Below are positions 3,743 through 52,875 of a stretch of 64,000 bases of DNA, piece after piece; position 1 is the first letter of the stretch, and the number at the start of each line of letters is the position of its first letter. The notes beneath the pieces are model-generated. The model had not been told where the DNA came from. It saw only the letters and a list, made by a program, of their open reading frames with translations, and searched no databases. The translations under genes were made by a program, and so were the position numbers. The stretch is from Ilumatobacteraceae bacterium (GTDB lineage: Bacteria > Actinomycetota > Acidimicrobiia > Acidimicrobiales > Ilumatobacteraceae): the NCBI GenBank assembly GCA_031408175.1, contig JANOJI010000001.1:492-64491 (forward strand). Reading direction: 5' to 3'.

Positions 3743-3760
3743 TCGTATACATTATGCAAC
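3741..3760. promoter_or_regulatory. AT-rich GTATA-core site (ATTCGTATACATTATGCAAC) in the TauE / GntR-1 divergent region
   Basis: Read directly; its reverse complement TTGCATAATGTATACGAAT closely matches the 16141 site. Confidence 0.5.
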
Positions 3761-7725: not shown

Positions 7726-8720
7726 AGCGCGCCCTTCCCGGACCCGATGACCGTCGCCGCGAACTTCTTCTCCCGCTCCTGCGGGTCGAGCGCCACGCGC
7801 AACCAACTGCTCAGGAGGTTGACCGCGAGCACTGTCAGGCTGAGCAGAAGACCCGGATAGATGATCAGCCATTGGTTGCCGAACAGCTCATGGTCGCCGG
7901 CGCGGCTGATGTCGAGACCCCACGAGACCCCCGGGTATTGGATACCGAGACCGAGGAAGCTCAGCGCCGCTTCGGCGAGGATGATTCGGGCGAACTCGAG
8001 GACGCCAAGAGTCGCCAGCGGAGTCACGAGGTTCGGCAGGATGTGGGTGAACACCACTCGTTTGGGCTTGCAGCCGATGATCTCGGCCGCCTCGACGAAT
8101 GGGCGCTCGCGGATCGAGAGCACGACACCGCGGGTCATTCTGGCGTAGACCATCCATCCGTTGACGGCGAGGATGATGGTAATCGTCGTGATGCTGCCGC
8201 CAACGAGCGCGATCAGCAGCATCGCCAACAGCAGGCCCGGAAACGACACCTGGACGTCGACCCAGCCCATCAACCAACGGTCGACGCGGCCACCCTTGTA
8301 GCCCGACAGCAAACCGACAAGCACGCCGAACGTTCCTGCGAGGAGCACGACAAGCACACCGATCGTCAGCGAAGTACGCGCACCGGACAACAGCCTGGCG
8401 AGGATGTCGTATCCCTGCCAGTCGGTGCCGAGCGGATTGCTCCAGGATCCACCGTGCCACACTGGCGAGGCCAACGCGTTGGAGAGATTGCCTTCGTTCG
8501 GATCGACGTGCCTCAGGATCGGAGCGATGATCGCCCCGCCGACGAGCACGACGAGAAACACGAGAGAGGCGAGGCCGAGCTTGTCGCGAACGAGGTCGGG
8601 CAGGAGCCCTTTGCTGCGCACAGCGGCGAGCTCGAACGGTCGACCGTGCAGCGCCTCTTCTAAATGCTCTGCCTCTTCGACATCGTGCTGTTGAGCGGTG
8701 TGTTCGTCTGGCATGGTCAT
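7722..8720 (-). CDS. ABC transporter permease (OppC/DppC type)
   Basis: 332 aa multi-TM protein. AAEIIGCKPKRVVFTHILPN loop is typical of binding-protein-dependent permeases. Confidence 0.9.
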   Translation of the reverse strand: MTMPDEHTAQQHDVEEAEHLEEALHGRPFELAAVRSKGLLPDLVRDKLGLASLVFLVVLVGGAIIAPILRHVDPNEGNLSNALASPVWHGGSWSNPLGTDWQGYDILARLLSGARTSLTIGVLVVLLAGTFGVLVGLLSGYKGGRVDRWLMGWVDVQVSFPGLLLAMLLIALVGGSITTITIILAVNGWMVYARMTRGVVLSIRERPFVEAAEIIGCKPKRVVFTHILPNLVTPLATLGVLEFARIILAEAALSFLGLGIQYPGVSWGLDISRAGDHELFGNQWLIIYPGLLLSLTVLAVNLLSSWLRVALDPQEREKKFAATVIGSGKGAL

Positions 8721-9640
8721 TGCAGGTCCACCCTCGGGTCGAGGAGCTTGTAGGCAATGTCGATCACTATGTTGAGAATGACGACCACGACGGCGATGAC
8801 GAATACGATCGCTTGAATGAGGTAGAAGTCTTGGTTCTGGATCGCGGTTTTGGCCATGAACCCGAGGCCCGGCCAGTTGAAGACGGATTCGACGACGACG
8901 GTGTAGCCGGCGAGGGCGCGGATGATCTCCCAGCCGAGCAGCGTGACGTATGGAATCCCGGCGTTGCGCATCGCGTGCACGCCGAGGATGCGTCGCTGCG
9001 ACATCCCCTTGGCCCTAGCCACCTTCACATACTGCGTGTTGAGCTCATCGATCATCGACGATCGCACGACGATCGCTAGTCGACCGATTGCCGGCAGGGC
9101 CAGGCACACAGCCGGAAGGACAAGATTGCGGGTCCATGGGCCAGGCCCGGACTCGAACCAGTGCAGCTTCACGGTGAACGCGATGAGGAGTACGAACCCG
9201 ACGAAGAACTGCGGCATCGACAGCCCGATCAGGCTGAGGGTCGTGAGGACCCGGTCGGTCAGGCCACCCGGCTTGCGGCTGGCCAAAAGGCCGAGCGGGA
9301 TGCTGACCACGATTGCAAACAGCATTCCGAGGCCGACGAGTTGCAGGGTGCGGGGGATGTAGTCGAACACGACCGACAGCGCCGAGCGTCCCCGTACATA
9401 CGTGCTGTCACCGAGGTCGAGACGAATCAAACCGCCGAGGAAGTGCACGAACTGAACTGGGATGCTCTTGTCGAGTCCCAGTGCCGCGCTTCGAGCAGCT
9501 CGCTGTTCGGCAGTCGCCGAGAGCGGCAGCATGAACTTCACGGGATCGCCCACCAGGCGAGTGATCACGAAGACGAACACGGTCACTCCGAAGATGACCA
9601 CGAGGCCTTGTGCCAGTCGTCGGGCGATGTAGCGTCCCAT
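8717..9640 (-). CDS. ABC transporter permease (OppB/DppB type)
   Basis: 307 aa. N-terminus MGRYIARRL... and YVKVARAKGMSQRRILGVHAMRNA are typical of DppB-like permeases. 4-nt overlap with the next gene. Confidence 0.9.
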   Translation of the reverse strand: MGRYIARRLAQGLVVIFGVTVFVFVITRLVGDPVKFMLPLSATAEQRAARSAALGLDKSIPVQFVHFLGGLIRLDLGDSTYVRGRSALSVVFDYIPRTLQLVGLGMLFAIVVSIPLGLLASRKPGGLTDRVLTTLSLIGLSMPQFFVGFVLLIAFTVKLHWFESGPGPWTRNLVLPAVCLALPAIGRLAIVVRSSMIDELNTQYVKVARAKGMSQRRILGVHAMRNAGIPYVTLLGWEIIRALAGYTVVVESVFNWPGLGFMAKTAIQNQDFYLIQAIVFVIAVVVVILNIVIDIAYKLLDPRVDLQ

Positions 9641-9675: not shown

Positions 9676-11268
9676 TCAGCTGGTGACGGACATTTCCTTG
9701 ACGAGGAGCTTCGAGTCGACTCGAGGCGTCCAGGTGAGGCGAGTCGAGAGTCCGTAGAGATCCTGGTTGTTGACCAGCCAGACGAAGTACGCGCCGTCGT
9801 AGGCCATCTTGACGGCCTCCTGGTAGGTGGTGGCACGCACCGCAGGATCCAACTCCTGACGACCTTGGTCGATGAGGGCCGAGAGGTCGGCGTCGGTGTT
9901 CGACGAGCCGATTCCACCGGCTTGGTAGTAGGTCGACAGCTGACGATCAGGGTCGAGGATGTCGTTCGAACTCGACACGAAGATGGCGTCGGCTCGGCTC
10001 TCACGATCGAACAACACGTCGAGGTAGGCGCCGAACTCGAGGATGTCGAGCTTCACATCGAGGCCAGCGGCCTTCCAGTAGCCAGCAACCGCCTCGAGGA
10101 GGTCCCGGTCGTTCAACCACCGGCCTGCCTCACCGACGAGGTTGATGGTCTTGCCGGCGAGGCCCGCATCCGTGATCAGTTGCTTGGCCTTGTCGGCATC
10201 GTACGGATAGGCATCGATCGAATCGTTGAAGCCGAGCACCGATTCGCTGAGCAGCTGACCCTTGTCGGCGGCAGCGAATCCTCCGAAGACCTGATCGACG
10301 ATCGCCTGCTTGTCGACAGCCAGGTTGAGCGCGAGGCGAACATTCGGATCGGCAGTGATGCCTTCGTCGCTATCGAGAATGAGAATTGGGTGTTCCTGAC
10401 CCTGCACCTTCGCCGACTGGGGGGCTTGGTCGACGTCTTGCGGTGGCAAGTTGGTGATCAGATCATACTTGCCGGACTTCAGCCCGGCCAGCCTGGTGCC
10501 ACCCTCTGCCACGAACTCGTACGTGACCTTGGCGATGGAGGGAGCGTCGCCCCAATAGTCCGCGTTGGCTTCCACCGTGACGTCGGACCCGACCGTTCGG
10601 CTGACGAACTTGTACGGGCCAGTGCCGTTCGGCGCATCGGACAGGTCTTCGGTCGTCTCGGCCGATGTCGGGATCATCTTCAGCCAGTACATCCGAGCCG
10701 GCATGACACCGTCTGGCTTTGCCGTGGTGATGTTCACCGTGGTGTCGTCGACCTTGGTTGCCCCGGTGATGCTGGAATAGAAGCCGTCGTTGTCGGTCTT
10801 CTTGTCGGCGATCAACTTCACCATTCTGGTGATGCTCGCGACGACCGAGTCGGCGTTGAACGCCGAGCCATCGTGGAAGGCGACACCCTCGCGGAGCTTG
10901 AACTGCCAGGTCAGATCATCGACCTGGGTCGGCAGCTCGGTTGCGAGTCCTGGCTCCAGATCCCCGCTAGCAGTGCGGGTCAGCAGCGTCTCGTAGACGT
11001 TGTCATTGACAGCTCGTTCTGCGCCGTCGTCGACCAGATACGGATCGAGGCTGGTGGGCTCCGATCCAAGTGCGATGGTGATCTCCCCACCGGCAGCCAC
11101 AGTCCCTTCGGTGGACGGAGTGGTGTCGCCTGTCGAGCTCGCCGTGGTGCCACCGCTGGCAGTAGTACCGCCAGTGGCCGTGGAGTTGCTGCTTCCATCG
11201 CTGCCGCAGGCGGCTGCGACGAAACTCACGGCGAGCAGCGAACCAAACAACCGGTAACGCTTCTTCAA
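9676..11268 (-). CDS. ABC transporter substrate-binding lipoprotein, family 5 (peptide/opine/nickel type)
   Basis: Lipobox LLAVSFVAAACGS, Thr/Gly/Ser-rich linker, then a family-5 SBP body. Start placed at TTG 11268, preceded by AAGGGGGAATAAC (the ORF track begins at 11310). Confidence 0.85.
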   Translation of the reverse strand: MKKRYRLFGSLLAVSFVAAACGSDGSSNSTATGGTTASGGTTASSTGDTTPSTEGTVAAGGEITIALGSEPTSLDPYLVDDGAERAVNDNVYETLLTRTASGDLEPGLATELPTQVDDLTWQFKLREGVAFHDGSAFNADSVVASITRMVKLIADKKTDNDGFYSSITGATKVDDTTVNITTAKPDGVMPARMYWLKMIPTSAETTEDLSDAPNGTGPYKFVSRTVGSDVTVEANADYWGDAPSIAKVTYEFVAEGGTRLAGLKSGKYDLITNLPPQDVDQAPQSAKVQGQEHPILILDSDEGITADPNVRLALNLAVDKQAIVDQVFGGFAAADKGQLLSESVLGFNDSIDAYPYDADKAKQLITDAGLAGKTINLVGEAGRWLNDRDLLEAVAGYWKAAGLDVKLDILEFGAYLDVLFDRESRADAIFVSSSNDILDPDRQLSTYYQAGGIGSSNTDADLSALIDQGRQELDPAVRATTYQEAVKMAYDGAYFVWLVNNQDLYGLSTRLTWTPRVDSKLLVKEMSVTS

Positions 11269-11307
11269 GTTATTCCCCCTTGATAAGGTGGACCCGTTGG
11301 CCCATCG

Positions 11308-11332
11308 CATACTTTATACAATCTACATATTC
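11308..11332. promoter_or_regulatory. AT-rich GTATA-core site (CATACTTTATACAATCTACATATTC) in the SBP-1 / GntR-2 divergent region
   Basis: Read directly; the reverse complement contains AGATTGTATAAAG. Confidence 0.45.
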
Positions 11333-11420
11333 CGAACGTCAATGTCCACACTCGACGTTCACCAGCCCGAAACAGGCGCCAGGAGAGGTCCCAAGTGGAA
11401 CATGCCAAGGCGAACGTGCC

Positions 11421-12107
11421 ATGACCGAATCGAAACCGACGCCATCGCTTGCCGTGCGGGTCGGCAGCGCCCATCAGCCTCTGCGTCGCGCTGTGTACGA
11501 CGAAGTCCAGCGGCGTATCGTCGACGGTCGCTTGCAACAGGGCGAACGCATCTTCGAAGACCAGTTGGCACACGAGTTGGACGTCTCCCGGAACCCGGTG
11601 CGCGAAGCATTGCAAGCGTTGGAGGCGGAAGGCTTTGTCGAGTTGGAACCACGCCGCGGGGCGCGCGTCGCGATGATCTCGACGGAGCGGGCGAACGATC
11701 TCTTCGAACTGCGAGAGGCGCTGGAGGGAATGGTCGCGCGCCTTGCCGCGCAGCGGCGCACACCGGAGCAACTGCTCGACTTGCAACGTCTCACACAACT
11801 CGGCGCCGACGCCGCCGGTGCCGGCGATGTGTCGGCGTTGCCAGCACTCAACACCGAGTTTCATCGACTCCTCTGTGACGCCGCGAACAACTCGATGCTC
11901 GCGGACACGGTCGAGCGGATGTCGCAACTCATCCAGTGGGTGTACACGAAGCGGATCACACAACGCGGCAGCGAGTCGTGGACAGAGCATCAGCGAATCG
12001 TCGACGCAATCGCTGACGGCGACGGCGATCGCGCCTTCAGCCAGGCATGCGAACACATCTCCAATGCGCGTCGCGCCTACGTCAACGACCGGCTCGCGAC
12101 CGGCTAA
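11421..12107 (+). CDS. GntR-family regulator, FCD subfamily (GntR-2)
   Basis: [42 protein letters not shown] wHTH plus FCD-like C-terminal domain. Start at the internal ATG (MTESKP...). Confidence 0.85.
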   Translation: MTESKPTPSLAVRVGSAHQPLRRAVYDEVQRRIVDGRLQQGERIFEDQLAHELDVSRNPVREALQALEAEGFVELEPRRGARVAMISTERANDLFELREALEGMVARLAAQRRTPEQLLDLQRLTQLGADAAGAGDVSALPALNTEFHRLLCDAANNSMLADTVERMSQLIQWVYTKRITQRGSESWTEHQRIVDAIADGDGDRAFSQACEHISNARRAYVNDRLATG

Positions 12108-12120: not shown

Positions 12121-12423
12121 ATGACCAAGACCTACGTCGTCAATCAGGTCGTCGTTCACGATCCGGTGCGCTATGCCGACTACGCCACCCGCGGCCGAGA
12201 CGCTGTCGTGCTGTACGGCGGTCGGATCCTCTCGGGTGGCGGACGGGTCGAAACTCTGGAGGGCGAACCAATTCCGTCGCGCGTGGTCGTGATTGAGTTC
12301 CCGAGCTACGACGCGGCCATCGCGTACTACCGGTCACCCGAGTATCAAGCTGCCAAGGCATTGCGCGGCGATGCTGCAACTGTTCGCTTCGCGCTCGTCG
12401 AGGGCATTGCCGAACCGAACTAA
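12121..12423 (+). CDS. DUF1330-family small protein
   Basis: 100 aa, MTKTYVVNQVVVHDPVRYADY...VVVIEFPSYDAAIAYYRSPEYQAAKALR is typical DUF1330. GAGGAA RBS upstream. Confidence 0.7.
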   Translation: MTKTYVVNQVVVHDPVRYADYATRGRDAVVLYGGRILSGGGRVETLEGEPIPSRVVVIEFPSYDAAIAYYRSPEYQAAKALRGDAATVRFALVEGIAEPN

Positions 12424-12427: not shown

Positions 12428-13195
12428 TCAGAAGCCGCGGACTGCTCCACCGTCGACGCGAACGACCGTGCCGGTGATGAAGCTGGCGCGCTGGCTGGCC
12501 AGGAAGACCACGACGTCGGCCAGTTCGTCGGCGCGACCAAGCCGTCCCATGGGGATCGCGGCGATGTGCTGCCTGCGGATTTCGTCGACCGATACCGACT
12601 CGCTCGCGGCGCGCGCCGTTTCAAAGCGCCCGAGCGCCGGCGTCGCGAACTGTCCGGTCACGATCACGTTGACGGTCGCGCGCGGAGCGAGTTCCAGTGC
12701 CAGCGACCTTGCTGCCGCCGTGACACCGCTGCGAAACACAGAGCTCAATGCAAGATCCGGTGAGGCCTCGACAACCGATCGAGCGGTGAGATAGATCAGT
12801 CGACCATGTTCCGTTGCGGTGACATGAGGCGCCACGGCACGGCTAACTTCCAACACGGGTCGCAACATCGCGTGGTAGGCGGCATCGTCGGCTCCGTCGG
12901 TTGCAAGGATCGATCCCGGTTTGCCGCCACCCGTGTTGACGACGCAGATGTCGAGTCCACCGAGCGCTTCCACGGCGTCAGCCACGAGACGTGCAGCGTC
13001 GCCGGCGACGGTCAGGTCGGCGACCAGTGAGGCAGCAGCGTTGATCGACTCGCGCGCCTCAAGGCTGCGATCTGCGCTGCGGCTGACAACAGCAACCTGG
13101 GCACCCTCGGCGACGAGACCGGCGGCGACTGCGCGTCCGAGGCCGCTCGACGAGCCGAGCACCAGCGCTCGACGCCCCGCCAGCATCAGGTCCAT
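12428..13195 (-). CDS. SDR-family oxidoreductase
   Basis: RRALVLGSSSGLGRAVA Rossmann motif, ~255 aa. ATG 13195 overlaps the ALDH stop (TGATG). Confidence 0.8.
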   Translation of the reverse strand: MDLMLAGRRALVLGSSSGLGRAVAAGLVAEGAQVAVVSRSADRSLEARESINAAASLVADLTVAGDAARLVADAVEALGGLDICVVNTGGGKPGSILATDGADDAAYHAMLRPVLEVSRAVAPHVTATEHGRLIYLTARSVVEASPDLALSSVFRSGVTAAARSLALELAPRATVNVIVTGQFATPALGRFETARAASESVSVDEIRRQHIAAIPMGRLGRADELADVVVFLASQRASFITGTVVRVDGGAVRGF

Positions 13196-14655
13196 CAGCT
13201 GCCCATCCAAACGGTTCGCATGATCGTGTAGAAGTCCATCACGGTCGGCCCGAGCTGCTCCTTGTGGGTACCGGTGCCCGACTGCTTGATCCCGCCGAAC
13301 GGCGCGTTGAATGCCGCACCGACGGTGGCCCGATTGATCCGCACCATTCCCGCCTGGATCTCAGCGGCGAAGTGTTGCGCGGCGCGGAGGTCACGAGTGC
13401 AGATGGCCGCCGACAACCCGTACTCGACCGAATTCGCGGATGCGATTGCATCGTCGATGCCCTCGATCCGCTCGAAACCGACGACTGGCCCGAACACCTC
13501 GCGACGACTCAGTTCCATCTCGGGTCTGGCGTCCGACAACACCGTCGGAGAGAAGTAGCAACCGTGTGCGTACTGGTCGCCCGCCGGTCGCGTGCCGCCA
13601 CATGCAACTCGAGCTCCGTCTCTCACAGCTTGAGCGACCGCCCACTCCATCCCCGTCACAGCACTCTCGTCGATCAGCGGGCCCATCGTGATGCCCGACT
13701 GGTCTCCTGGGCCGATCGCATAGGCGTTGGCCAAGGCGACGACACGCTCGATGAGTTCGTCGTAGACACTCGTATCCACAAGGATGCGCCCTGCACCGGT
13801 GCAGGCCTGCCCGGAGAGGCTGAAACTCGATCGAGCAACGATGGATGCAGCGGCGTCCAGATCGGCGTCGGCAAGGACGATCACGGGGTTCTTGCCGCCG
13901 AGCTCCAACTGCACGCGGCGACCGACACCGATCGCTGCATGGATCTTGGAACCGGTCGCGTTCGAACCGGTGAAGCTGATCGCACCGACCCGCTCGTCTG
14001 ACACGAGGTGCGCACCCGCAGCGAATCCATGCACGACGTTGAGGACACCCGGTGGCAGACCCGCGTCGATGAAGGCAGCAGCCAAACGATCCCCCATCAG
14101 CGGCGTCATCGGCGATGGCTTGAACACCACAGTGTTGCCTGCCGCGAGCGCGGGACCGATCTTGCGGCTGGCCAGGTTGAGGGGAAAGTTCCACGGCGTG
14201 ATGACTCCGACCACGCCGACCGGATCGCAGACCGAGTACACCAGCGGCGTGTCGTCACTGGGGAACGTCGCACCCGTCAGCCGGTAGGCCTCGCCGGCGT
14301 ACAGCTCGAGGTTGCGCGGCGTTCGGCTCGATTCATTCTTTGCGTCGGCCAGCGGCTTGCCCTCCTCGGCCACCATTTCCGCAGCGATGGAATCGCCTCG
14401 CTCGGCGAGCAGCCGGGCAGCCCCGGTCAACAACTCGGCGCGTCGACTCGGTGTCGTGCGTCGCCATTCAACACTCGCCTCGCTCGCTGCGTCGACTGCC
14501 GCCTGCACATCCGCAGGCGTGCTTTCCGGTGCGACCGACACCACGTGGCGTATGTCCGCCGGATTGCGCCGAACGAACTCGGCGCCGTCTGCTGCCGGAC
14601 GGAGGTCACCGCCGATTCGATTGTGTACTGGTGTCGATGAACCGATGGCGGCCAC
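13195..14655 (-). CDS. Aldehyde dehydrogenase family protein
   Basis: VQLELGGKNP and SGQACTGAGR (catalytic Cys) motifs. GTG start 14655 gives ~486 aa; the ORF-track N-terminal extension is Ser/Arg-rich shadow. Confidence 0.85.
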   Translation of the reverse strand: MAAIGSSTPVHNRIGGDLRPAADGAEFVRRNPADIRHVVSVAPESTPADVQAAVDAASEASVEWRRTTPSRRAELLTGAARLLAERGDSIAAEMVAEEGKPLADAKNESSRTPRNLELYAGEAYRLTGATFPSDDTPLVYSVCDPVGVVGVITPWNFPLNLASRKIGPALAAGNTVVFKPSPMTPLMGDRLAAAFIDAGLPPGVLNVVHGFAAGAHLVSDERVGAISFTGSNATGSKIHAAIGVGRRVQLELGGKNPVIVLADADLDAAASIVARSSFSLSGQACTGAGRILVDTSVYDELIERVVALANAYAIGPGDQSGITMGPLIDESAVTGMEWAVAQAVRDGARVACGGTRPAGDQYAHGCYFSPTVLSDARPEMELSRREVFGPVVGFERIEGIDDAIASANSVEYGLSAAICTRDLRAAQHFAAEIQAGMVRINRATVGAAFNAPFGGIKQSGTGTHKEQLGPTVMDFYTIMRTVWMGS

Positions 14656-14656
14656 G

Positions 14657-15136
14657 TCAGTCGGCCGTCGGCTTCGGCGGCTGCCAGCTGTCCCACTTCG
14701 AGAAGTCGACCGGCTTACCGAGATGCTCGAGCAGCGCTGTGATGCCGGATTTACAGCATGCGATGTCTTCGCGCGTGTGACCGCCGGAGACGCCAACGCC
14801 ACCGACCACCTCACCGTCAACTTCGATCGGCCATCCGCCGACGAAGATCGAGAATCGTCCACCGTGCATGTTCATGATGCCGAACGCCTCTTGTCCCGGA
14901 TGGGCGTTGGTGTAGGTGTGCGTCGGACGCTTGTGGCACGCCGCTGTGAAGGCCTTGTTGATCGCGATTTCCACACTGGTCGGCTTGCCGTTGTCCGGGC
15001 GCTTGATGACCAGTGGCCACCCGCCGGCGTCGCACACGCAAACAACTGTGCCGACACCAAGTTCTTTCGCAGTGGCGAGCGCGGCATCGACGACCAATTC
15101 GGCCTCGGCCATGGAGAGTCGGTTGATCTGGATCAC
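14657..15136 (-). CDS. GlcG/HbpS-like (DUF336) heme-binding family protein
   Basis: AEAELVVDAALATAKELGV...VVCVCDAGGWPLVIKRPDNGK...GGVGVSGG is typical DUF336. GTG start preceded by GGAGA, GTGA overlap with the upstream stop. Confidence 0.75.
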   Translation of the reverse strand: MIQINRLSMAEAELVVDAALATAKELGVGTVVCVCDAGGWPLVIKRPDNGKPTSVEIAINKAFTAACHKRPTHTYTNAHPGQEAFGIMNMHGGRFSIFVGGWPIEVDGEVVGGVGVSGGHTREDIACCKSGITALLEHLGKPVDFSKWDSWQPPKPTAD

Positions 15137-16101
15137 GGTGTTGTCTCCCTGATGTGTTGATGCTGACGAATGAAGTCGTGTGAGTTGTATCGCTGCCATG
15201 CAAGACCTGCGGCCGCGACGTCCTGCAACGCCACACCCTGAGTCTCGAACAGCACCGGAGCTCGACCGGCACCCTCGACGACAACAGTTCCGGCGAGCAC
15301 AGCGTGCAACTCGACGGCACGATCCCAATCGAATGCGCCGGCTCGATGCGCTTGGATCAAGTCCCCGCACTCCATTCGGCTGCCGACGACATCGTCGCAG
15401 ACCACAGTCGCGCAGCGCGCAATGACATCGGCGCCGATCTCGCGGCGGTCGTACTTGGTCGCCCCGACCGCGCAGATCAGCGCGCCGTTGCCAACCATCT
15501 CGGCTGGGAACAGCGGCGCTGTGCTGCGGGTGACGGTCACGATCACATCGGCACCATCCACCGCCGAAGCGGCACTCACCGCAGCAGTGGCCGGAATACC
15601 CACCTGGCACGCACGGTCGACCATTGTCGCAACGGCGGCGGGATTGAGATCGGCGATGCGCACCTCGTGGAGGCCAGGCAGTTCGGCAGCAAGCATCTCG
15701 AGGTGATACCAACCCTGGCGCCCGGCGCCGACGAGTGCAGCGGTCGTGCGGGGAGAACTCGGCGCATCACACAAGGTGCGGATCGCGAGGGCGCAGGCGG
15801 CGGGTGTTCGGAAGGCTGTCAGTGCGTCGCCAGCGAGAGTGCACAGCAGGTGGCCCTCGGTGTCGAACAGCACGTTGACGAAGGTGAACTTGCCGTTTGT
15901 GGTGGCATAGATCTTGCCGCCACTGAACGGTGGCACGACCGCAGCCATCGCGCTGGCCATCGCATTCGGCGTGGACGCACGGACCCGCTGCGTGGTGTCG
16001 GCTTCGCCGCGGCCCCAGGCGATGAAGGCGTCTCCGACTACCTGAGTGACACCCGCGAGGTCGAGTAGCCCTTCGATCGCGTCGTCGTCGAGATGGATCA
16101 T
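15133..16101 (-). CDS. Ornithine cyclodeaminase / mu-crystallin family protein
   Basis: 322 aa from MIHLDDDAIEGLLD. Rossmann stretch AALVGAGRQGWYHLEML and overall OCD-like layout. Confidence 0.8.
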   Translation of the reverse strand: MIHLDDDAIEGLLDLAGVTQVVGDAFIAWGRGEADTTQRVRASTPNAMASAMAAVVPPFSGGKIYATTNGKFTFVNVLFDTEGHLLCTLAGDALTAFRTPAACALAIRTLCDAPSSPRTTAALVGAGRQGWYHLEMLAAELPGLHEVRIADLNPAAVATMVDRACQVGIPATAAVSAASAVDGADVIVTVTRSTAPLFPAEMVGNGALICAVGATKYDRREIGADVIARCATVVCDDVVGSRMECGDLIQAHRAGAFDWDRAVELHAVLAGTVVVEGAGRAPVLFETQGVALQDVAAAGLAWQRYNSHDFIRQHQHIRETTP

Positions 16102-16140
16102 GCTGCGCCAATCATCCAGTCTCTCTTCGCATCTGCCACA

Positions 16141-16160
16141 GAATTGCATATTGTATCCGA
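16141..16160. promoter_or_regulatory. AT-rich GTATA-core site (GAATTGCATATTGTATCCGA) in the OCD / MFS divergent region
   Basis: Read directly. Confidence 0.5.
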
Positions 16161-16161
16161 G

Positions 16162-17325
16162 ATGCCAATCCCTGTACACGCTCCGCCGGAAGTCCGGCCG
16201 CGCTGGGGATCATTCGCTCTCGTGTGCGTCGCCTATCTGGTCGCGACCACCGGCGAACAGCTGCTATCGCCCGTGTATCCCACGGCATCGAAGGACCTGG
16301 GGCTCAGCGTCGGCCAAGGCGGCATCGTGTTCGGGCTGCTCACTGGATCGATCGCGGTGTTCAACCTGGTTGCGGGTTTGTTGCTGCGTCGGATCAGCCC
16401 CGGGACGCTGATCCGGTGCGCGGCGCTCGTCGGCGTGGCGGGTAGCGTCGCGACCGCTACCGCACACAACTTCGTTCACCTGATTGTTGGTCAGGTCGTG
16501 CTGGGTTCGAGCGCCGGGCTGTTCTTTCCGGCAGGTTTACAGGCCGTGGCATTGCTCGCCGGTCCGGCAAAGAAGGGCTTTGCAATGGGCATCTACGGCG
16601 TTGCCTTCAGCGGCGGCCTCACCCTCGCCGCGGTGCTCGGCGCGGTCGGATCCAGCTACAACTGGCGGATCTCCTTTTGGGTCGCCGCCGGGCTCGGCGC
16701 GATCGCGTTTGTCGGCGGTGCCGGCGAAGCGAAGGCCAGACCTGTGCGAGGCAGCCATTCGCGGTTCTCGTTGCGAACGGTGATGGCACTGCCTACGGCA
16801 GTGGGCACCGTGCTCGCCGTCTGTCAGTACGGTGCCATTCCGTTCCTCACCACATTCGCGGTCGTCGAGTGGGGTCTCTCTGCAACCCGCGCTGCAACCG
16901 TGCTGGTGATCGGGCGTGTCATTTCGATCGTGGCCAAAGTGGTGGGCGGCGCGAGCGCCGATCGGGTGGGCGCCAAGACCAGCGCCCGCCGCACCGGCGT
17001 CGTGTTGACGTTGACCGGCCTGGCGTGGGTCCTGCTCCCCGGTTCTCTTTTGGCGTACGGGCTCGCCGCGCTCTTTGCAGGCATGGTCAGTTCACTCGGC
17101 CCGGTCGCGAACGTGCTCGCCGTCGAACGGTTCGGCGGAGACGGCATGGCATTGGGGGCCTATCGCTCAGTGCAGATCGCGCTCGGCGCCGCAGCGAGTG
17201 CGCTGATCGGCCTTGCCGGCGACATGTTCGGTCTCAGGCCGACCTTGGCCGTGGCGACACTGACACCGCTGGCCTTGCTGTGGATCTGTCGCGAGCGCGG
17301 CAACGAGTGTGCTCCTGTGAGTTGA
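16162..17325 (+). CDS. MFS transporter
   Basis: About 12 hydrophobic segments. Start at ATG 16162 (MPIPVHAPP...). Confidence 0.8.
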   Translation: MPIPVHAPPEVRPRWGSFALVCVAYLVATTGEQLLSPVYPTASKDLGLSVGQGGIVFGLLTGSIAVFNLVAGLLLRRISPGTLIRCAALVGVAGSVATATAHNFVHLIVGQVVLGSSAGLFFPAGLQAVALLAGPAKKGFAMGIYGVAFSGGLTLAAVLGAVGSSYNWRISFWVAAGLGAIAFVGGAGEAKARPVRGSHSRFSLRTVMALPTAVGTVLAVCQYGAIPFLTTFAVVEWGLSATRAATVLVIGRVISIVAKVVGGASADRVGAKTSARRTGVVLTLTGLAWVLLPGSLLAYGLAALFAGMVSSLGPVANVLAVERFGGDGMALGAYRSVQIALGAAASALIGLAGDMFGLRPTLAVATLTPLALLWICRERGNECAPVS

Positions 17326-17334: not shown

Positions 17335-18795
17335 TCAGACGCCGAGGGCAAGGCCGACCGTCCGCGGATCTGCAGCTGCCATCCATGGCTCGTCGGCGCG
17401 CCGAATTCGTACCACCTGCTGAGCGGACTTGCATCCCCAACGCGGCGCATCGATCATCCGCTCGACCTCGGCGCGCAGCGACTCGACCTCGGCAGGCTCG
17501 AATCCGGCCTCGATCCGCAGGCCATCGTCCTCTGGCAGCCATTCCCAGATCGGTGAGGCCACGAGCACGCCGGGATGCGTCTCCCCCGCGGCAATGCGAG
17601 CAAGCGTTTGGGCGTTCCACGGCATTTGATTGGCGCCGCCAGGCGTGGCGCCGATGAACCGGGGGCGACCGTCGATGCCGGCGACCGCCCACGCGTGCAG
17701 GGTGGTCGCCGGCCGCCGGCCCGCGCTGGGAAAGTTCGGGTGACCCGGCTCCGGGGTGAACCCGCGGCCGGCGCGATTGGCCAATGGGAGGTCGTACCCG
17801 GGGACGACGATCCCGCTGCCAAACCGGGGGAACGAGTTCGAGTGCACGACAACGACGACATTGCCGTCGCCGTCGGCGGCACTGACCATCGAGGTGCCAC
17901 TCGGGTCGGCGAGAGTGGATCGCCTCTCCGCAATAGACCTCATTACCGCACGAAGTACGTCGGCAGCCGACGCAGTTGCGTTGAGCCCTGCAACGGCGTC
18001 GAGCAGCGATGGTCCGTGCGTCGGAGCCGGCGTTGCCCAGGTCGTCACGTCTCCCTGCACCGTAGCGGCTCGACCAGCTACGCAGGGCGCCCACTCGGCT
18101 CGGGCAAAGCCGAAATCGTCGTGCTCCAGCACGCCGCCGCGCCCGCGAACCTCGGCCACCACCGCTGACCCGAGTGGTCCGTGCATGAGCTCGGCGCCGC
18201 GAACGACGAACTCTTCGAGCACTCTGGCCAGACCTGGCAGCCGAGTGATCGTGCCAGGGATGATCGGCGAGCCTCCGGGATAGTACGCACAGCCTTCCGG
18301 GTTCATCTCGCGTACCAGCGCTGCGGCTTGCCGGCTGAGGCGCGAACACACCTCTGCCCATGGGAACCCATGGGTGGCAAGATCGATGGCGGGCGCGGCG
18401 AGACGGGCGCGACCGAGACGGCCGAGGTCGACGAGTGCGGCGTAGCCCGGCGCTGCCGCCGGCGGGCCGACCGACATCGGACCCACTTCGCGCCATGTTC
18501 CGGAGCGGGCGACGTCGGAGAGCCCTGCAGGCGCTCCGCCGATCGCGAGGAGCGCGTCGGGAGCCGGAGAGTTGGCGACGAGGCGGATCGCGATCAGGTC
18601 TCCACCGAAGCCGCACTTCGGTGGGAGCAACACAGTCTCGGCCAAGGCAGCGGCCACCACTGCGTCGTAGGCATTGCCTCCGTCGCGAAGGGCCGCTGCG
18701 CCGGCCTGCGCCGCCAGTGGGGCTGCTGCGCACACGACGCCGGACCTGCCGAGGGCTGCGCATTGTTCCGCCATCACTGCAACTTCGTTCGCCAT
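17335..18795 (-). CDS. Gamma-glutamyltransferase-family (Ntn hydrolase) protein, no obvious signal peptide
   Basis: PLAAQAGAAALRDGGNAYDAVVAAAL N-terminal motif and nucleophile region SGTSMVSAADGDGNVVVVVHSNS. Start at ATG 18795 (alternative GTG 18840). Confidence 0.8.
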   Translation of the reverse strand: MANEVAVMAEQCAALGRSGVVCAAAPLAAQAGAAALRDGGNAYDAVVAAALAETVLLPPKCGFGGDLIAIRLVANSPAPDALLAIGGAPAGLSDVARSGTWREVGPMSVGPPAAAPGYAALVDLGRLGRARLAAPAIDLATHGFPWAEVCSRLSRQAAALVREMNPEGCAYYPGGSPIIPGTITRLPGLARVLEEFVVRGAELMHGPLGSAVVAEVRGRGGVLEHDDFGFARAEWAPCVAGRAATVQGDVTTWATPAPTHGPSLLDAVAGLNATASAADVLRAVMRSIAERRSTLADPSGTSMVSAADGDGNVVVVVHSNSFPRFGSGIVVPGYDLPLANRAGRGFTPEPGHPNFPSAGRRPATTLHAWAVAGIDGRPRFIGATPGGANQMPWNAQTLARIAAGETHPGVLVASPIWEWLPEDDGLRIEAGFEPAEVESLRAEVERMIDAPRWGCKSAQQVVRIRRADEPWMAAADPRTVGLALGV

Positions 18796-18861
18796 GGTCA
18801 ACGATCCCACGTCGCCAGTTGCTTCGCGGAGGTCGGGCACAAACCTGCTTGCATCATCGGA

Positions 18862-18884
18862 AATCTAGTATACAATATACGAAC
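18862..18884. promoter_or_regulatory. AT-rich GTATA-core site (AATCTAGTATACAATATACGAAC) in the GGT / di-iron-cassette divergent region
   Basis: Read directly; contains GTATAC and, on the other strand, TCGTATATTGTATAC. Confidence 0.5.
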
Positions 18885-18925
18885 TGCCGCGACCTGGCGG
18901 CGCTTCCTTCGAAAGGTACACGACA

Positions 18926-19669
18926 ATGGCCGAGTTGCTGTCCAAGCCCGAGTTCCGTACAGCACTGGAAGACGCGATCAAGGGTCGCGAAGCGAAGAAC
19001 GCCTCGTTCTCGCAGGCGTGGGCCAATGGCGAGCTCGAGCGCGAGCACTTCGCCCGTTGGGCAGAGAATCACTATCACTACGTCGGCCCGTTCGCTGACT
19101 ACCTCGGGTACATCTACTCGAACACACCCGACTACGCGACCGATGCGAAGGACTTCCTCCTCCAGAACATGTACGAAGAGGAGTTGTCCGATGTGCGTCA
19201 CACCGATCTGTTGATTCGCTTCGCCGAAGCTGCAGGCACAACCCGCGAGCGAGTGATGGACATCGACAACGCGACGGCTGTGACCCGCGGTCTGCAGGGC
19301 TGGTGCTACGCAATCGCGATGCGCGAGCACTTCGCTGTCGCCACCGCTGCTCTCGTGGTCGGTCTCGAGTCCCAGGTCCCGTCGATCTACCGCCGGCAAT
19401 ACCCGGTACTCCTCGAGAAGTACGGCTTCACCGAGGAGGAGGCCGAGTTCTTCGACCTGCACATCACATCCGACGAGATCCATGGTGAGCGTGGCTACCA
19501 AATCGTGCTCGAGCACGCGACGACGCCCGAGTTGCAGGCGCGCTGCCTCCAGTTGGTCCGTCACGGGGCGGAGGCGCGGTTCTCGTACACCAAGGCCCTC
19601 TACGACACCTACGTCGCGCCGGAACCGCCAGTTCCCGTCGGCACCCCGGTCGCACCAGCCCTCGCCTGA
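18926..19669 (+). CDS. Heme-oxygenase-like di-iron protein (CADD/PqqC/TenA-like fold)
   Basis: 247 aa all-helical. Ligand pattern E85-x6-H92 (YEEELSDVRH), E148 (GLESQ), H179-x3-D183-x2-H186 (HITSDEIH). Confidence 0.75.
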   Translation: MAELLSKPEFRTALEDAIKGREAKNASFSQAWANGELEREHFARWAENHYHYVGPFADYLGYIYSNTPDYATDAKDFLLQNMYEEELSDVRHTDLLIRFAEAAGTTRERVMDIDNATAVTRGLQGWCYAIAMREHFAVATAALVVGLESQVPSIYRRQYPVLLEKYGFTEEEAEFFDLHITSDEIHGERGYQIVLEHATTPELQARCLQLVRHGAEARFSYTKALYDTYVAPEPPVPVGTPVAPALA

Positions 19670-19691
19670 CGACCGTCGCCGCGGCCGTCCG

Positions 19692-20054
19692 ATGCCCACC
19701 ATCCACTTCTCGACAACCGGCCGCGACGTCACCTTCGCCGATGGCGACGAGGTCAACCTGCTACGCGTCGCCATCCGCAACGATTGTGGCATCCCTTTCA
19801 AATGCGCCAGTGGCAATTGCGGAACAGATCGCGTTCGAGTGGAGTCAGGCGCGGAAAACTGCTCGACCCTCCGCCGCCGCGAACGCGAACGACTAGCCGA
19901 ACTCGTCGATCAGGGCTACCGGCTCGCCTGCCAGACCTACGTCAACGGCGATGTAACCGTCGCCTGGGATCCCGACCAGATCGGCTTGGACGAGGGAAGC
20001 AAGGTCTACGACAAGCTGCGGCAAGTTTGGTTGGCCAAGGACGACTGTGGATGA
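19692..20054 (+). CDS. 2Fe-2S ferredoxin-like protein with atypical ligand spacing
   Basis: 120 aa. C32-x5-C38-ASGN-C43-GT-D46 ... LAC80Q, where the usual CxxGxCGxC third Cys is Asp. Confidence 0.7.
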   Translation: MPTIHFSTTGRDVTFADGDEVNLLRVAIRNDCGIPFKCASGNCGTDRVRVESGAENCSTLRRRERERLAELVDQGYRLACQTYVNGDVTVAWDPDQIGLDEGSKVYDKLRQVWLAKDDCG

Positions 20055-20863
20055 GCACTCCTGACGAGTTCGCCGGGTCGCCGGTTAGAGACTCGGGCGT
20101 ATCCGAGGCTGGAAAATGGGTCGTGGTCGGTACGGCTGCAGACATCGCCAAACGAAAGAAGGTCGTCGTCGAGATCGACGGCCGCCAAGTCCTCATGATC
20201 GCCCACGAGGGACAGTTCTTCGCCGTCGACAACATCTGCATGCACCGCCAACGCGAACTCTCCAAAGGCGTCATCCTCAACGGCAAGATCGTTTGTCCCG
20301 GGCACCAGTGGGCGTTTGCTCTCGACACCGGATGGGAAGCCGTGAAGCAGGAATGCCAGCCCACCCACCCAGTTCGGCTCACCGGCGATTTGGTCAAAGT
20401 GTTCGTGGCCTCGATCTTGCCGGCCACTACCGACAGCCAATCCGTGAAAGCCTGGATTGACGACTGGGGTGTCGAGGTTGCCGCAGTCGACCTGGCTGCT
20501 GCGCGGCTGCGCTTTGCCACGGACGTGTCGGCCTTCGGCACCCACGCCGATGTAGTGATCGGTCGTGACAATCTCGAGACCGAGCAATGGTCGCAGATCT
20601 GGCCAGCGATCGAAGACTTCCGTTTCGTTACCGACGAGATGCAGATACTGATGTCGCCCGACCGCCTCCAGGCGATAGCGGTGGTTGGTTGGACGTCGAT
20701 CGGCATCGCTCGGGACGGTCACCGCTTCGATCGACCAGGCCGAGCAACCGTGGTGCTGACACGAGATTCGATCGACAAGCCGTGGCTTGGGATCCACACG
20801 CACTTCTCGCTCAGCCGCGACGTCCCACACAGCACGCACGGCGCACGACCGCGCATCCACTGA
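20051..20863 (+). CDS. Rieske [2Fe-2S] domain fused to an NTF2-like (SnoaL/DUF4440-type) domain
   Basis: C63-M-H65 ... C82-P-G-H85 Rieske motif. C-terminal half ends ...GRATVVLTRDSIDKPWLGIHTHFS, typical of DUF4440/SnoaL. ATGA overlap with the ferredoxin stop. Confidence 0.75.
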   Translation: MSTPDEFAGSPVRDSGVSEAGKWVVVGTAADIAKRKKVVVEIDGRQVLMIAHEGQFFAVDNICMHRQRELSKGVILNGKIVCPGHQWAFALDTGWEAVKQECQPTHPVRLTGDLVKVFVASILPATTDSQSVKAWIDDWGVEVAAVDLAAARLRFATDVSAFGTHADVVIGRDNLETEQWSQIWPAIEDFRFVTDEMQILMSPDRLQAIAVVGWTSIGIARDGHRFDRPGRATVVLTRDSIDKPWLGIHTHFSLSRDVPHSTHGARPRIH

Positions 20864-20867
20864 CCAC

Positions 20868-21362
20868 AATGGTGAAATCACTTGTCGATCGGGACATCGC
20901 ATCGCGCGACAGCTTGGGATGCACGCTTTGCCCGCCCGCTGAGGCGGAGACCGAGCGCAGTCAAGGCAGCGGTCAATCTGCTCGCAGTGGTGCCCGGGTG
21001 GGTTCGAAAGAGCAGGTCGATCGAGTCGACGCCGAGTCGGCGCAGGGATCCTTCGGTCGTCTCCTTGATCAGTTCAGGACGGCTCGAGACCGTCGGTTTC
21101 CACTGGCGTCACACAGCCCAAACTTGGTGGCGATGATCACGCCGTCGCACATGGGCGCGAGGCCTTGGCCGACGAGTTCTTCGTTGGTGAACGGCCCGTA
21201 CACCTGGACCGTGTCGAAGAACGTCACACCCAGATCAACGGCTGTGCGAAGCAGTGAGCTTGCGTCGTCGGGGCTGAGTAGGACGCTGCGGTGAAGCTCA
21301 TTCCCATACAGCCCAGGCCAAGCGCGGAGACCTTCAACCCACTGGTTCCCAACTCTCTGCAT
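20868..21362 (-). pseudogene. Aldo/keto reductase pseudogene (multiple frameshifts, 3'-truncated)
   Basis: AKR pieces lie in three frames: LKVSALGLGCMGMSF (shifted), AVDLGVTFFDTVQVYGPFTNEELVGQGL...VIIATKFG (ORF 21069..21422), and RPELIKETTEGSLRRLGVDSIDLLF (shifted). It ends abruptly next to 20863. Confidence 0.7.
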
Positions 21363-21589
21363 TGCATGTCGGCCTCCACCTCGATTCAGGTCGCCGAGCA
21401 GCCAATCAGCGCCGAACAGCATCAGATCGGCTTGGCCCTAAGCGGCAGACCACACCGTACGCCTCGCGCGATGCGCTGGACTCCGCGGCGGCTTCCACGA
21501 CGCGGGCTTGTCTTGGTGGTGTGTGCAGCTGACGCCTGGCGTGCCGTACGGCGACCCGCGATCGAACGTCGCGACATCTCGCGCGACCG

Positions 21590-23619: not shown

Positions 23620-23942
23620 CGTATAGGGGGGTTTACGTCGCCGGATTCGCCGCAGCGTTCGATGATCCAGCATTCATCCCTCGGCTGCAAACGGCAGCAG
23701 CCGAAGTGGGCGCGAGCATCGGCGTCGCCGCCAACATTCTCGACCCGAAGCGGATTGTAATCGGAGGGAGCCTAGGCACCACCGCCACGTACTTCCGTCG
23801 GCTCACCGCCAGCATTCGTGCGTCGATCTACGCCGAGGACACCCGTCAACTGCTCATCGACCGATCACAGCTGGGCCCTGATGCGGCCGCCCTCGGCGCC
23901 GCCATGGTCGCCATCGACCACCTCCACGAGCTCGAGAGCTAG
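23620..23942 (+). pseudogene. C-terminal fragment of a ROK-family gene
   Basis: GVYVAGFAAAFDDPAFIPRLQTAAAEVGASIGVAANILDPKRIVIGGSLG...LGPDAAALGAAMVAI equals the ROK C-terminal third. No N-terminal two-thirds and no start. Confidence 0.55.
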
Positions 23943-50123: not shown

Positions 50124-50441
50124 TTATTGGTTGCTGGGATCGTAGGGTCTTGCACCACTTGCCGCCGCAAGGACATGGCGATCCTTCGCGTGAGTTCGCG
50201 TCAGCGTCGCCTCGAGTTCGACCGACGCTGGTGGAACGAGCGGATCTCGCACCAGGTTGAGACTCTGTTCGAACGCCGCGAGAGCTCTAGGCCCGTCCTT
50301 CTCGATGAGACTCCTTCGCGCTTCATCCACAACGGCTTGTGACCAGGCGGCTCGATAGTCGCCGGCTTGGGCCGCGCCAAGGAGAAACCGCGTGACGGCG
50401 GATTTGAAGAGAACTGAAGCGTCAAAGAAAACAATGCACAT
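50124..50441 (-). pseudogene. PIN-domain toxin gene, 3'-truncated copy
   Basis: First ~96 aa are near-identical to the 174-aa PIN protein at 53583..54107, then an unrelated 9-aa tail and a stop. Confidence 0.7.
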
Positions 50442-50459
50442 GCATTGACCCCAAACCGT

Positions 50460-51601
50460 CTACTTCGAGCTTCCGTAGATACGGGAGGCGATGAGTTCGG
50501 CGGCGTCGGCGTCGAGGCCCTGAGCGACGTGGGAGTAGAGATCAAGGGTGATCCGCGAAGGTCGAATGTCCGAGGCGCTCAGAGACGATCTTGGGGCGCT
50601 CTCCGGCCTTCAGGGCGAGCGTCGCGTAGCTGTGGCGGAGGTCGTGCAGACGGATCCTCGGGAGCTCTGCGTCGCGGACGATTCGGTCGAACGACTGCGA
50701 GAACCGGTTCGGGTGAACCGGATCGCCGAACTCGGCGGTGAAGACGAGATCGCCCTCGTTCGGCCAAACGTCGGCTGCCGCGATCCGCTCCACACGCTGT
50801 CGCTTGCGATGGGTCTTCAGCGCGTCGAGTGTCACGCCGTCTATCGACACTGTGCGTCGGCTCTTGCCGGTTTTGGGTGGGCCGATGTGCTTGTCGCCGC
50901 GCACGGTCGTCAACGTCTGCACGATCGACAACGCTCGACCTGCGAAGTCCACGTCCTCCCATCGAAGGCCGAGCACCTCGCCTCGACGCATGCCCGTGGT
51001 CGAAAGAAGAACGAACGCCATCGACAGCCGCTCCCCCGCCAGCGCCTCGAAGAAACGCTGGATCTCCTCGGACGACCAGGTCCGCTGCTCGGCTCTCGGA
51101 GCCGCGACAGCACGAGCCGCCGCGGCCGGGTTGCGGCTGACAAGGCCGAACCGTTCGGCGTCGGCCAATGCACGACGTAGGACGATGTGACAGTTACGAA
51201 CCATCTTCGGTGCCAGCGGTCGCCCGCCGGCACCACCGCTCGCGAGCAACGTCGCGTAGAGAGACTCGACCTGCAATGGAGTCAACGCCTGCAACGAAAC
51301 CGCACCGATCTGCCGAGCGATGCGATTGGCAGCCATCTCGTAGCTGACCCAGGTCGTCTCGCGGAGGCGCGGTCGCATCGTCTCGAGCCACTCGGTCAAG
51401 AACCCGACACAGTGGTGCGATCGCGAACCGCTCTCCCTGCATCCGATGCGGTGGCAAGCGTGCGCAGCGCTGCTTCGGCTGCCTTCTTCGTGGCGAACCC
51501 TGAACGGCGAGCTTGTCGACGACGGCCGCTCGCGGATCCGGCCCGAGGTCGACGACGAACGACCACACCGTTCCCTTGCGCTGCACCGACCCCTTCGCCA
51601 T
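50460..51601 (-). pseudogene. int: Tyrosine integrase pseudogene (at least two frameshifts)
   Basis: N-terminus MAKGSVQRKGTVWSFVVDLGPDP is in one frame and the core in another (ORF 50542..51606). A 1-nt insertion near 50550-50570 relative to copy 2 destroys the GHST..LYSHV C-terminus. Confidence 0.8.
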
Positions 51602-51621
51602 CCCACAACCGTAGATCGAGG

Positions 51622-52871: not shown

Positions 52872-52875
52872 CCGG

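Follow-up and report, generated by a model that had tools for sequence, protein, structure and literature searches.

What does a heme-oxygenase-like di-iron oxidase (HDO) do when it is encoded together with two iron-sulfur (Fe-S) proteins? This question is raised by a three-gene group in a 64,000-nt stretch of an Ilumatobacteraceae genome (contig JANOJI010000001.1, assembly GCA_031408175.1), hereafter the window. A preliminary description of this DNA had reported three co-oriented genes for a di-iron protein, a ferredoxin and a Rieske::SnoaL fusion, and the open reading frame (ORF) positions together with Pfam confirmed them. They are the HDO gene (18926-19669, + strand; 247 aa; Pfam Haem_oxygenas_2 5e-33), the ferredoxin gene (19692-20054, +; 120 aa; Fer2 fold, similar to FeSII –Shethna protein–) and the Rieske::NTF2 fusion gene (20051-20863, +; 270 aa). 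The 22-nt gap between the HDO and ferredoxin genes and the start of the fusion gene inside an ATGA overlap with the ferredoxin gene were confirmed as well, and a terminator scan found no intrinsic terminator on the + strand within the three genes. Thus, the trio fits a single transcript. We consider it likely that a dedicated Fe-S electron chain feeds the HDO, which would be its terminal oxygenase, within a catabolic regulon.

Judged by its ligands and closest relatives, the first protein belongs to the CADD branch of the HDOs and has its set of metal ligands complete. The ligands E85, H92, E148, H179, D183 and H186, located in YEEELSDVRH, GLESQ and HITSDEIH, occupied exactly the positions claimed for them. 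They lined up with the CADD/NePabS ligands in an alignment with the PDB sequences, so the protein carries the 3-His/3-carboxylate primary ligand motif of the HDO superfamily. Across 43 diverse relatives with identities down to 24% (alignment A2), five of these ligands were invariant and D183 nearly so. The closest PDB sequences were NePabS (9pj4, 1e-17) and CT610/CtCADD (4e-15), at only ~23-30% identity, and PqqC was far weaker. The AlphaFold2 (AF2) model was all-helical with a pLDDT of 96.5. Compared by Foldseek, it superposed on CtCADD with TM scores of 0.80-0.93 and root-mean-square deviations of 1.7-1.9 Å, followed by PqqC, UndA, HrmI, FlcD and BesC; model and matches together displayed the seven-helix heme-oxygenase-like fold.

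The profile search suggested in the preliminary description ranked Haem_oxygenas_2 above TENA_THI-4 (8e-11) in Pfam. In NCBIfam, the CADD family model TIGR04305 was the best one (90.5 bits, under its cut-off of 200), above the PqqC model TIGR02111 (41.5 bits, under its cut-off of 240). Pfam, NCBIfam, PDB, the ligand alignment and Foldseek thus agreed with the claim that the protein is of CADD type, neither PqqC nor TenA. An assignment as PqqC was rejected on the TIGR02111 score and on the surroundings, where no pqqABDE genes occur and the neighbours encode gamma-glutamyltranspeptidase-family (GGT), MFS, ornithine cyclodeaminase (OCD), aldehyde dehydrogenase (ALDH), ferredoxin and Rieske proteins. 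The metal ligands seen in this HDO are not known as a feature of PqqC. Among candidate fusions that could link the HDO to a partner domain, P0089 (HDO-Fer2) and P0259 look like read-through or fragmentary calls, and P0263 and P0261 contained the HDO domain alone, with no identifiable partner domain.

The Rieske [2Fe-2S] ferredoxin domain covers the first part of the fusion gene (20051-20425, +; Pfam Rieske 2e-15, Rieske_4 8e-11). All four of its ligands (C63-x-H65 and C82-x-x-H85) are in place and likewise conserved across 81 orthologues, and Pfam detected no Ring_hydroxyl_A or SRPBCC domain, as expected of a soluble Rieske-type ferredoxin. The domain resembles the ferredoxins HcaC, AndAb and NahAb, and in PDB it matched the naphthalene dioxygenase ferredoxin (1.5e-9) and T4moC (1.6e-6). 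The remaining part of the gene (20426-20863, +) encodes the C-terminal NTF2-like domain, and its match to SnoaL_3 (1.7e-5), next to that of the Rieske domain, confirmed the predicted fusion to a SnoaL/DUF4440-like domain.

The ferredoxin only partly agreed with its first description as a 120-aa 2Fe-2S protein. The Fer2 fold was retrieved clearly (Pfam 2e-10, 40.8 bits against a cut-off of 21), within a free 120-aa protein that has no flavin or NAD domain by Pfam or NCBIfam. The canonical four-Cys motif was not found: instead of the standard plant-type C-x4-C-x2-C...C, the protein presents C38-x4-C43-x2-D46...C80. The best PDB match was FeSII (5ffi, 1e-6), whose third Cys lined up with D46, and NCBIfam gave a weak match to YfaE (3.8e-4). 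Among 36 orthologues, Asp46 was invariant at the place of the third Cys and the segments CASGNCGTDR and LACQ were conserved. C38, C43 and C80 were conserved, C32 partly, and C57 was not. Asp46 may be part of a Cys3-Asp [2Fe-2S] site.

At the genomic level, we compared the 80 best loci retrieved by tblastn, 35 of them from Acidimicrobiia. An orthologous Rieske gene (Rieske1) was the next gene downstream of the HDO gene in 80/80 loci, in at least two classes. The Fer2 ferredoxin gene lay between the two in 35/35 Acidimicrobiia loci and in 0 Actinomycetes loci. The co-occurrence check that had been suggested for the trio thus held throughout Acidimicrobiia and failed for the trio as a universal unit; the universal conserved unit is the HDO + Rieske pair. 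In 43 Actinomycetes loci, Rieske1 was followed by a gene for a glutathione reductase (GR)-type FAD reductase (FdR), with Pyr_redox_2 and Reductase_C domains and 367 bits to HcaD. The Rieske domain of the window grouped with the Actinomycetes Rieske1, not with Rieske2, a phylogenetically distinct second Rieske protein. Rieske2 was observed in ~40 Actinomycetes loci after the reductase or the ALDH gene (as in L078, 9868-10212, and L037, 8337-8714).

The clade is uncharacterised, very widespread and highly conserved. Its HDOs share 75-99% identity across two classes, the 120 best HDO clusters of a 5.8-billion-protein set being 77-97% identical. In a 50%-identity representative library, the best full-length match had 67% identity, the next level was 49% and all others were at ≤39%; the 49%-identical homologue was again encoded with a Rieske gene directly downstream and an HbpS-like gene. 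In species-representative genomes of actinobacteria, we counted at least 546 stretches that encode relatives of the HDO. Hosts include Ilumatobacteraceae, other Acidimicrobiia, Pseudonocardia, Micromonospora, Streptomyces, Actinomadura, Rhodococcus, Nocardia and Nocardioides, and there are cultured carriers (Rhodococcus opacus, R. koreensis, Micromonospora, Streptomyces and Desertimonas flava). Over 8 kb, the window itself shared 97% identity with an Ilumatobacteraceae contig from a metagenome-assembled genome (L007). Between the window and Rhodococcus, identity was 75-79% for the HDO, 36-39% for the Rieske protein, ~50% for ALDH, ~45% for the HbpS-like protein and 28-30% for GGT.

In neither lineage does any conserved cluster gene other than that of the HDO encode a candidate for an O2-activating enzyme. 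Together with its universal Rieske neighbour and the adjacent HcaD-type reductase in Actinomycetes, this points to a multi-component oxygenase. The natural partner of HcaD is a Rieske ferredoxin.

From the observed gene content, ligand sets, fold, synteny and operator motif, we infer a direction of electron flow, a type of reaction and a substrate class. The 247-aa HDO would activate O2 as the terminal component of a multi-component oxygenase with an HDO scaffold, and the dedicated Rieske [2Fe-2S] protein would pass electrons to its di-iron (or Mn/Fe) site. In Acidimicrobiia, electrons would presumably come from a reductase and run through the FeSII-like Fer2 ferredoxin and Rieske1(::NTF2) to the HDO. 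In Actinomycetes, they would run from NAD(P)H through the HcaD-type FAD reductase –perhaps via Rieske2– and Rieske1 to the di-metal HDO. Such a stoichiometric electron supply would imply monooxygenase-type chemistry (substrate + O2 + 2 e- + 2 H+), that is, C-/N-hydroxylation or oxidative C-N cleavage.

The preliminary description had considered the trio a self-contained system, which was not borne out. None of the Acidimicrobiia cluster genes encodes an NAD(P)H reductase, and tblastn over the 64 kb of the window retrieved no homologue of the GR-type FdR, the only reductase type searched for. The system cannot be called self-contained for this reason. No MmoB/DmpM-like effector gene was found among the annotated cluster genes either.

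Apart from the trio, the window harbors further genes of a conserved catabolic cluster. GGT had been described as divergent from the HDO gene, which was correct; it is more than a mere neighbour, being a member of this larger cluster and regulon. The gene encodes a cytoplasmic GGT-family Ntn hydrolase (17335-18840, - strand; Pfam G_glu_transpept 1e-54), whose catalytic Thr motif SGT aligned with PDB 2nlz and 2i3o. Its true start is probably near 18795; the orthologue in locus L081 has 489 aa. Beyond it lie an MFS transporter gene (16093-17325, +; Pfam MFS_1 in the L081 orthologue; 25 Acidimicrobiia loci) and an OCD/mu-crystallin gene (15133-16179, -; Pfam OCD_Mu_crystall; 20 loci, Acidimicrobiia version only). 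The OCD protein resembles imine reductases and pyrroline-2-carboxylate reductases (NCBIfam delta1-pyrroline-2-carboxylate reductase family, 1.7e-35, below cut-off). Next come the genes for an HbpS-like/GlcG (DUF336) protein (14657-15136, -; Pfam HbpS-like) and for ALDH (13195-14679, -; tblastn 84% to the L081 ALDH). The best models of the latter were the 2,5-dioxovalerate and alpha-ketoglutarate-semialdehyde dehydrogenases, both below cut-off (NCBIfam 434 bits against 750).

A short-chain dehydrogenase (SDR) gene (12428-13195, -; Pfam adh_short_C2 1e-35) ends the OCD-HbpS-ALDH-SDR operon. An SDR beside ALDH was found in the window and in only 4/80 loci (L050, L054, L057 and the Actinomycetes locus L062). 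On the other strand, a GntR/FCD regulator gene (11418-12107, +; tblastn 80% to the L081 GntR, PF00392 and PF07729) is followed by a DUF1330 gene (12121-12423; DUF1330 6e-27). The left edge of the putative regulon is a gene for the SBP_bac_5 solute-binding protein of a peptide/opine-type ABC transporter (9676-11310, -; Pfam 4.5e-72); in L081, permease genes lie upstream of the SBP_bac_5 gene.

Several of these genes are common to both lineages: ALDH was present in 54/80 loci, the GGT-like gene in ~55/80 and the HbpS-like/DUF336 gene in 52/80. The Acidimicrobiia version adds OCD/mu-crystallin, MFS, the GntR/FCD regulator, DUF1330 and the peptide-type ABC transporter, and the Actinomycetes version adds RidA, a PucR-type regulator, an MFS protein and a 524-aa membrane protein. 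The latter is a multi-pass protein observed in 24 Actinomycetes loci (L078, 252-1829, -) with no Pfam or NCBIfam match, and it may represent a new transporter family.

At the regulatory level, a GTATA-core operator-like site had been described between GGT and the HDO gene. We found it as the AT-rich motif GTATACAATATAC at 18868-18880 (+) in the GGT/HDO divergent region, and upstream of the HDO gene in 33/35 Acidimicrobiia loci; it was absent from the Actinomycetes loci. Allowing ≤2 mismatches, the window contained four matches against 0.03 expected. The second copy, GGATACAATATGC, is in the OCD/MFS divergent region (16146-16158, -), at the same place as in L081 and L007. The third, TTATACAATCTAC, is in the SBP5/GntR divergent region (11314-11326, +), and the fourth lies upstream of a paralogous GntR gene (3745-3757). 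The longest OCD and MFS ORFs overlap by 87 nt (16093-16179). Their L081 orthologues have 324 and 387 aa, lengths which imply later starts for both genes and thus an intergenic space that holds the operator copy.

The GTATACAATATAC motif is likely the operator of the GntR/FCD regulon, as it matches the established shape of FadR/FCD-type GntR operators. By analogy with the operators of the FadR subfamily, the GntR/FCD protein of the window is a candidate binder of GTATAC-type operators. Because copies occur at three divergent promoter regions, the HDO operon, the transporter and the OCD-HbpS-ALDH-SDR operon would belong to one regulon.

A putative HDO promoter, assigned from conservation, overlaps the operator (18849-18880, +): a -35-like TTGCAT (18849-18854) and, after a 16-nt spacer, a -10 TACAAT (18871-18876) inside it. 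A consensus sigma-70 scan called no promoter. Between the operator and the ribosome-binding site (GAAAGG), the 5' untranslated region folds into a hairpin (18881-18906, +; RNAfold -13.1 kcal/mol). Its stems differ in sequence yet pair in L002-L005, L011 and L016, and Rfam gave no match to a known riboswitch or leader.

The company of the HDO suggests catabolism of a nitrogen compound, given the ALDH (2,5-dioxovalerate model), the GGT-like hydrolase, the RidA or OCD-type enzyme and the transporters. Related CADD-like clades are also encoded beside ALDH, GGT, MFS, SBP5 and GntR, which supports a catabolic setting. The regulon –GntR/FCD repressor, ABC and MFS transporters, GGT-like amidohydrolase, ALDH, HbpS-like protein, and OCD-type imine reductase or RidA– would convert a small N-containing acid, amide or gamma-glutamyl compound into an aldehyde, and this into an acid, with ammonia or glutamate as the other product. 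This choice of substrate class is a doubtful call, which we make with low confidence. A gamma-glutamylation pathway of the Puu/Ipu type was set aside and kept as a low-confidence idea only, since no glutamine-synthetase-like gene was found within 6 kb on either side in L078 or L081.

Several points weigh against the HDO as the terminal oxygenase of its own electron chain. Most characterised HDOs use small-molecule reductants and need no protein partner (2026 HDO review). No NAD(P)H reductase turned up in the Acidimicrobiia cluster, nor any GR-type FdR homologue in the window. [2Fe-2S] cluster binding by the ferredoxin is putative because its third canonical Cys is replaced by Asp. The ALDH, GGT and OCD matches all fall under their family cut-offs, so no substrate can be deduced from them, and between the two lineages the GGT proteins share only 28-32% identity. 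Besides, the proposed system assigns no role to the NTF2 domain or to the HbpS-like protein.

The alternative that survives best, improbable in our view, is that the HDO is a four-electron oxidase, desaturase or C-C-cleaving enzyme of the UndA/BesC/MboA type, with the Rieske protein and the ferredoxin as gating or maintenance partners rather than stoichiometric donors. Several HDOs are oxidases whose turnover consumes no net electrons from outside, and only the second turnover of MboA is gated by MboB (PMC13185094). YfaE-like Fer2 proteins maintain di-iron cofactors, and the ferredoxin of the window has its weak match to YfaE. What speaks against it is the HcaD-like FdR and Rieske chain beside the HDO in the 43 Actinomycetes loci, which is the layout of stoichiometric mono- and dioxygenase systems.

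It is very improbable that the HDO is a self-sacrificing p-aminobenzoate (pABA) synthase of the CADD/PabS type, with the Fe-S proteins as its reductants for folate-precursor synthesis. NePabS and CtCADD are its closest relatives in sequence and structure, and TIGR04305 is its best NCBIfam model. CADD requires reducing equivalents, and we know of no in-vivo electron donor for it. However, the TIGR04305 score is less than half of the cut-off, and the alignment placed Ser29 at the position of the sacrificial Tyr27 of CtCADD and Gln158 at that of the amine donor Lys152. The same Ser29/Gln158 pair was found in six close relatives from the tight clade in alignment A2 and in the 66%-identical P0121. 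The genes around it –transporters, ALDH, GGT-like hydrolase and GntR or PucR regulator– are not folate genes either. Because both sacrificial positions are replaced, we rejected the HDO as a pABA synthase. Tyr at position 29 and Lys at position 158 did co-occur in the remote relatives P0204, P0221, P0223, P0241, P0247, P0250 and P0266-P0268 of the same alignment; going by this residue pair, they look like unannotated CADD-type pABA synthases.

Equally hard to sustain is a non-functional adjacency, in which the Rieske protein and the ferredoxin serve another enzyme or are NirD-like non-redox subunits and the HDO is a metal-free PqqC-/TenA-like enzyme or regulator: database names of members do include 'pyrroloquinoline-quinone synthase' and 'TenA family transcriptional regulator', and the Rieske domain also matches the Rieske_2 and NirD models, but the PqqC score is far below its cut-off, the TenA match is weaker than Haem_oxygenas_2, conservation extends to the six metal ligands and the four Rieske ligands, the cluster has no second conserved oxygenase, and the HDO-Rieske adjacency holds in 80/80 loci although every other gene is rearranged.

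The preferred reading, an HDO fed by a dedicated Fe-S chain, can be compared with known systems. In outline, the proposed chain is similar to those of T4MO, of class IIB/III dioxygenases and of the AibH1H2-AibG-AibF system, from all of which it differs in the terminal fold. About a dozen HDOs have been validated, and those studied so far need no protein effector (2026 HDO review). Almost all characterised ones belong to natural-product or cofactor biosynthesis, and their in-vivo reduction is largely unexplained (2026 HDO literature). The closest enzymes in fold and sequence, CtCADD and NePabS, share the identical 3-His/3-carboxylate ligand set; the HDO of the window differs from them in lacking the sacrificial Tyr and donor Lys and in its catabolic cluster with Fe-S partners. 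MboA/MboB, the mangotoxin acetylenase HDO with its dedicated reductase, is possibly the first dedicated pair of HDO and redox partner (JACS, April 2026, PMC13185094). As here, an HDO is encoded with a dedicated [2Fe-2S] redox partner, on which MboA depends (PMC13185094). MboB, however, is a single flavin and Fe2S2 reductase (BenC/T4moF-like) from a biosynthetic cluster (PMC13185094), whereas the clade described here presents a Rieske protein with a free Fer2 ferredoxin, or with a GR-type FAD reductase and Rieske2, in a catabolic context and in hundreds of species.

In toluene 4-monooxygenase (T4MO) and other four-component bacterial multicomponent monooxygenases (BMMs), electrons run, as in the chain proposed here, from a plant-type [2Fe-2S] centre (T4moF) through a Rieske protein (T4moC) to a carboxylate/His di-iron site. 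In contrast to BMMs and soluble di-iron monooxygenases (SDIMOs), the candidate hydroxylase of the window is heme-oxygenase-like and not a ferritin-like four-helix bundle, no effector is encoded by the annotated cluster genes, and the Fer2 module is free and flavin-less. The system of the window would thus be BMM-like in its working without being a BMM/SDIMO member.

The three-component alpha-aminoisobutyrate hydroxylase AibH1H2-AibG-AibF of Rhodococcus wratislaviensis (PMC7782822) is also part of an actinobacterial amino-acid catabolic cluster, where a non-canonical di-iron hydroxylase with a Rieske ferredoxin and a reductase is followed by a dehydrogenase and ALDH (PMC7782822). Its terminal oxygenase has the amidohydrolase fold (TIM-barrel) rather than that of an HDO, and its regulator is of the LysR type (PMC7782822). 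As for the class IIB chains (HcaD/HcaC, BphA4/BphA3), the Actinomycetes FdR is HcaD-like and the Rieske proteins resemble HcaC, AndAb and NahAb. Unlike in those chains and in Rieske non-heme iron oxygenases, Pfam detected no alpha-subunit with a mononuclear-iron catalytic domain, and the acceptor would be the HDO.

In the literature searched, no HDO, CADD-like or PqqC-like protein was linked with a Rieske partner, and the only analogues were MboAB and the AibH system. The preliminary description had stated that characterised HDOs are generally not encoded with an Fe-S chain of their own. This still stands for a Rieske/ferredoxin chain, which was undescribed in that literature, and no longer for a dedicated redox partner as such, given MboAB (2026).

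With considerably more reserve than for the electron chain itself, we propose that this may be a new class of multi-component monooxygenases. In it, an HDO would be obligately paired with a Rieske protein, comparable to a Rieske oxygenase or to T4MO in "split" form, and would draw on lineage-specific donors (an Asp-ligated Fer2 protein, or a FAD reductase with Rieske2). Its reaction would open a widespread, so far undescribed pathway by which actinobacteria use an abundant nitrogenous compound. If true, this would be the first HDO assigned to primary catabolism, as opposed to natural-product or cofactor biosynthesis. With the HDO-Rieske clade, an HDO electron chain that is both natural and genetically defined is available from hundreds of actinobacterial species of soil and freshwater. 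Solving it would give HDO enzymology a physiological reductant system and probably also a new route of organic-nitrogen catabolism. Moreover, it would put to the test the function of a [2Fe-2S] ferredoxin whose third Cys is replaced by Asp.

Regarding the NTF2 domain, its AF2 model had a pLDDT above 90, and the best Foldseek matches were NTF2 proteins like the CaMKII association domain and ones like ketosteroid isomerase (KSI; TMt 0.74-0.84). A role analogous to the beta-subunit of Rieske oxygenases was unsupported, none being among the 50 best structural matches. About 25 protein clusters of 250-281 aa in the protein database carry the Rieske::NTF2 fusion. In 8 Acidimicrobiia loci, NTF2 was either fused or the adjacent gene downstream; in 11 it was a separate gene between HDO and GGT, upstream and on the opposite strand, and in 1 it lay elsewhere; tblastn over the 80 best loci did not detect it in 15 Acidimicrobiia loci nor in the Actinomycetes loci. 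By its sequence distribution, the fusion is lineage-specific and limited to a subset of Ilumatobacteraceae. In an unrelated locus, a VOC/glyoxalase domain was the fusion partner of the same NTF2 family.

Two more distant, 36%-identical CADD-like HDO clades presented gene neighbourhoods of their own, which also look catabolic. In L088-L090 (8001-8717), the HDO gene is accompanied by two ALDH genes and by GGT, MFS, SBP_bac_5, GntR/FCD, isochorismatase-family and VOC/glyoxalase genes. In L085-L087 (8001-8726), the company is ALDH, GntR (UTRA), Amdase, MmgE/PrpD and ABC/TonB transport genes. Both groups of loci contain a FAD monooxygenase gene, and neither contains a Rieske gene.

Finally, synteny of the window with L007 and L001 stopped at 20863-20908, just past the fusion gene. 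The decayed genes mentioned downstream in the preliminary description were recognized past this break at ~20908: an N-terminal aldo-keto-reductase fragment (21069-21422, -; profile positions 17-71 of 291) and a C-terminal ROK fragment (23706-23942, +; profile positions 223-293 of 294). Farther away, a direct repeat of ~1.6 kb is present at 50150-51724 and 53816-55437, each copy with a tyrosine integrase gene (50545-51606 and 54130-55353, both -). An identical 53-nt sequence similar to a tRNA 3' end follows each integrase (51672-51724 and 55385-55437), and ARAGORN found no intact tRNA. The repeat and its integrases (50150-55437) look like tandem integrative elements. In L007, an integrase (8337-9475) homologous to this tandem pair directly adjoins the HDO cluster.

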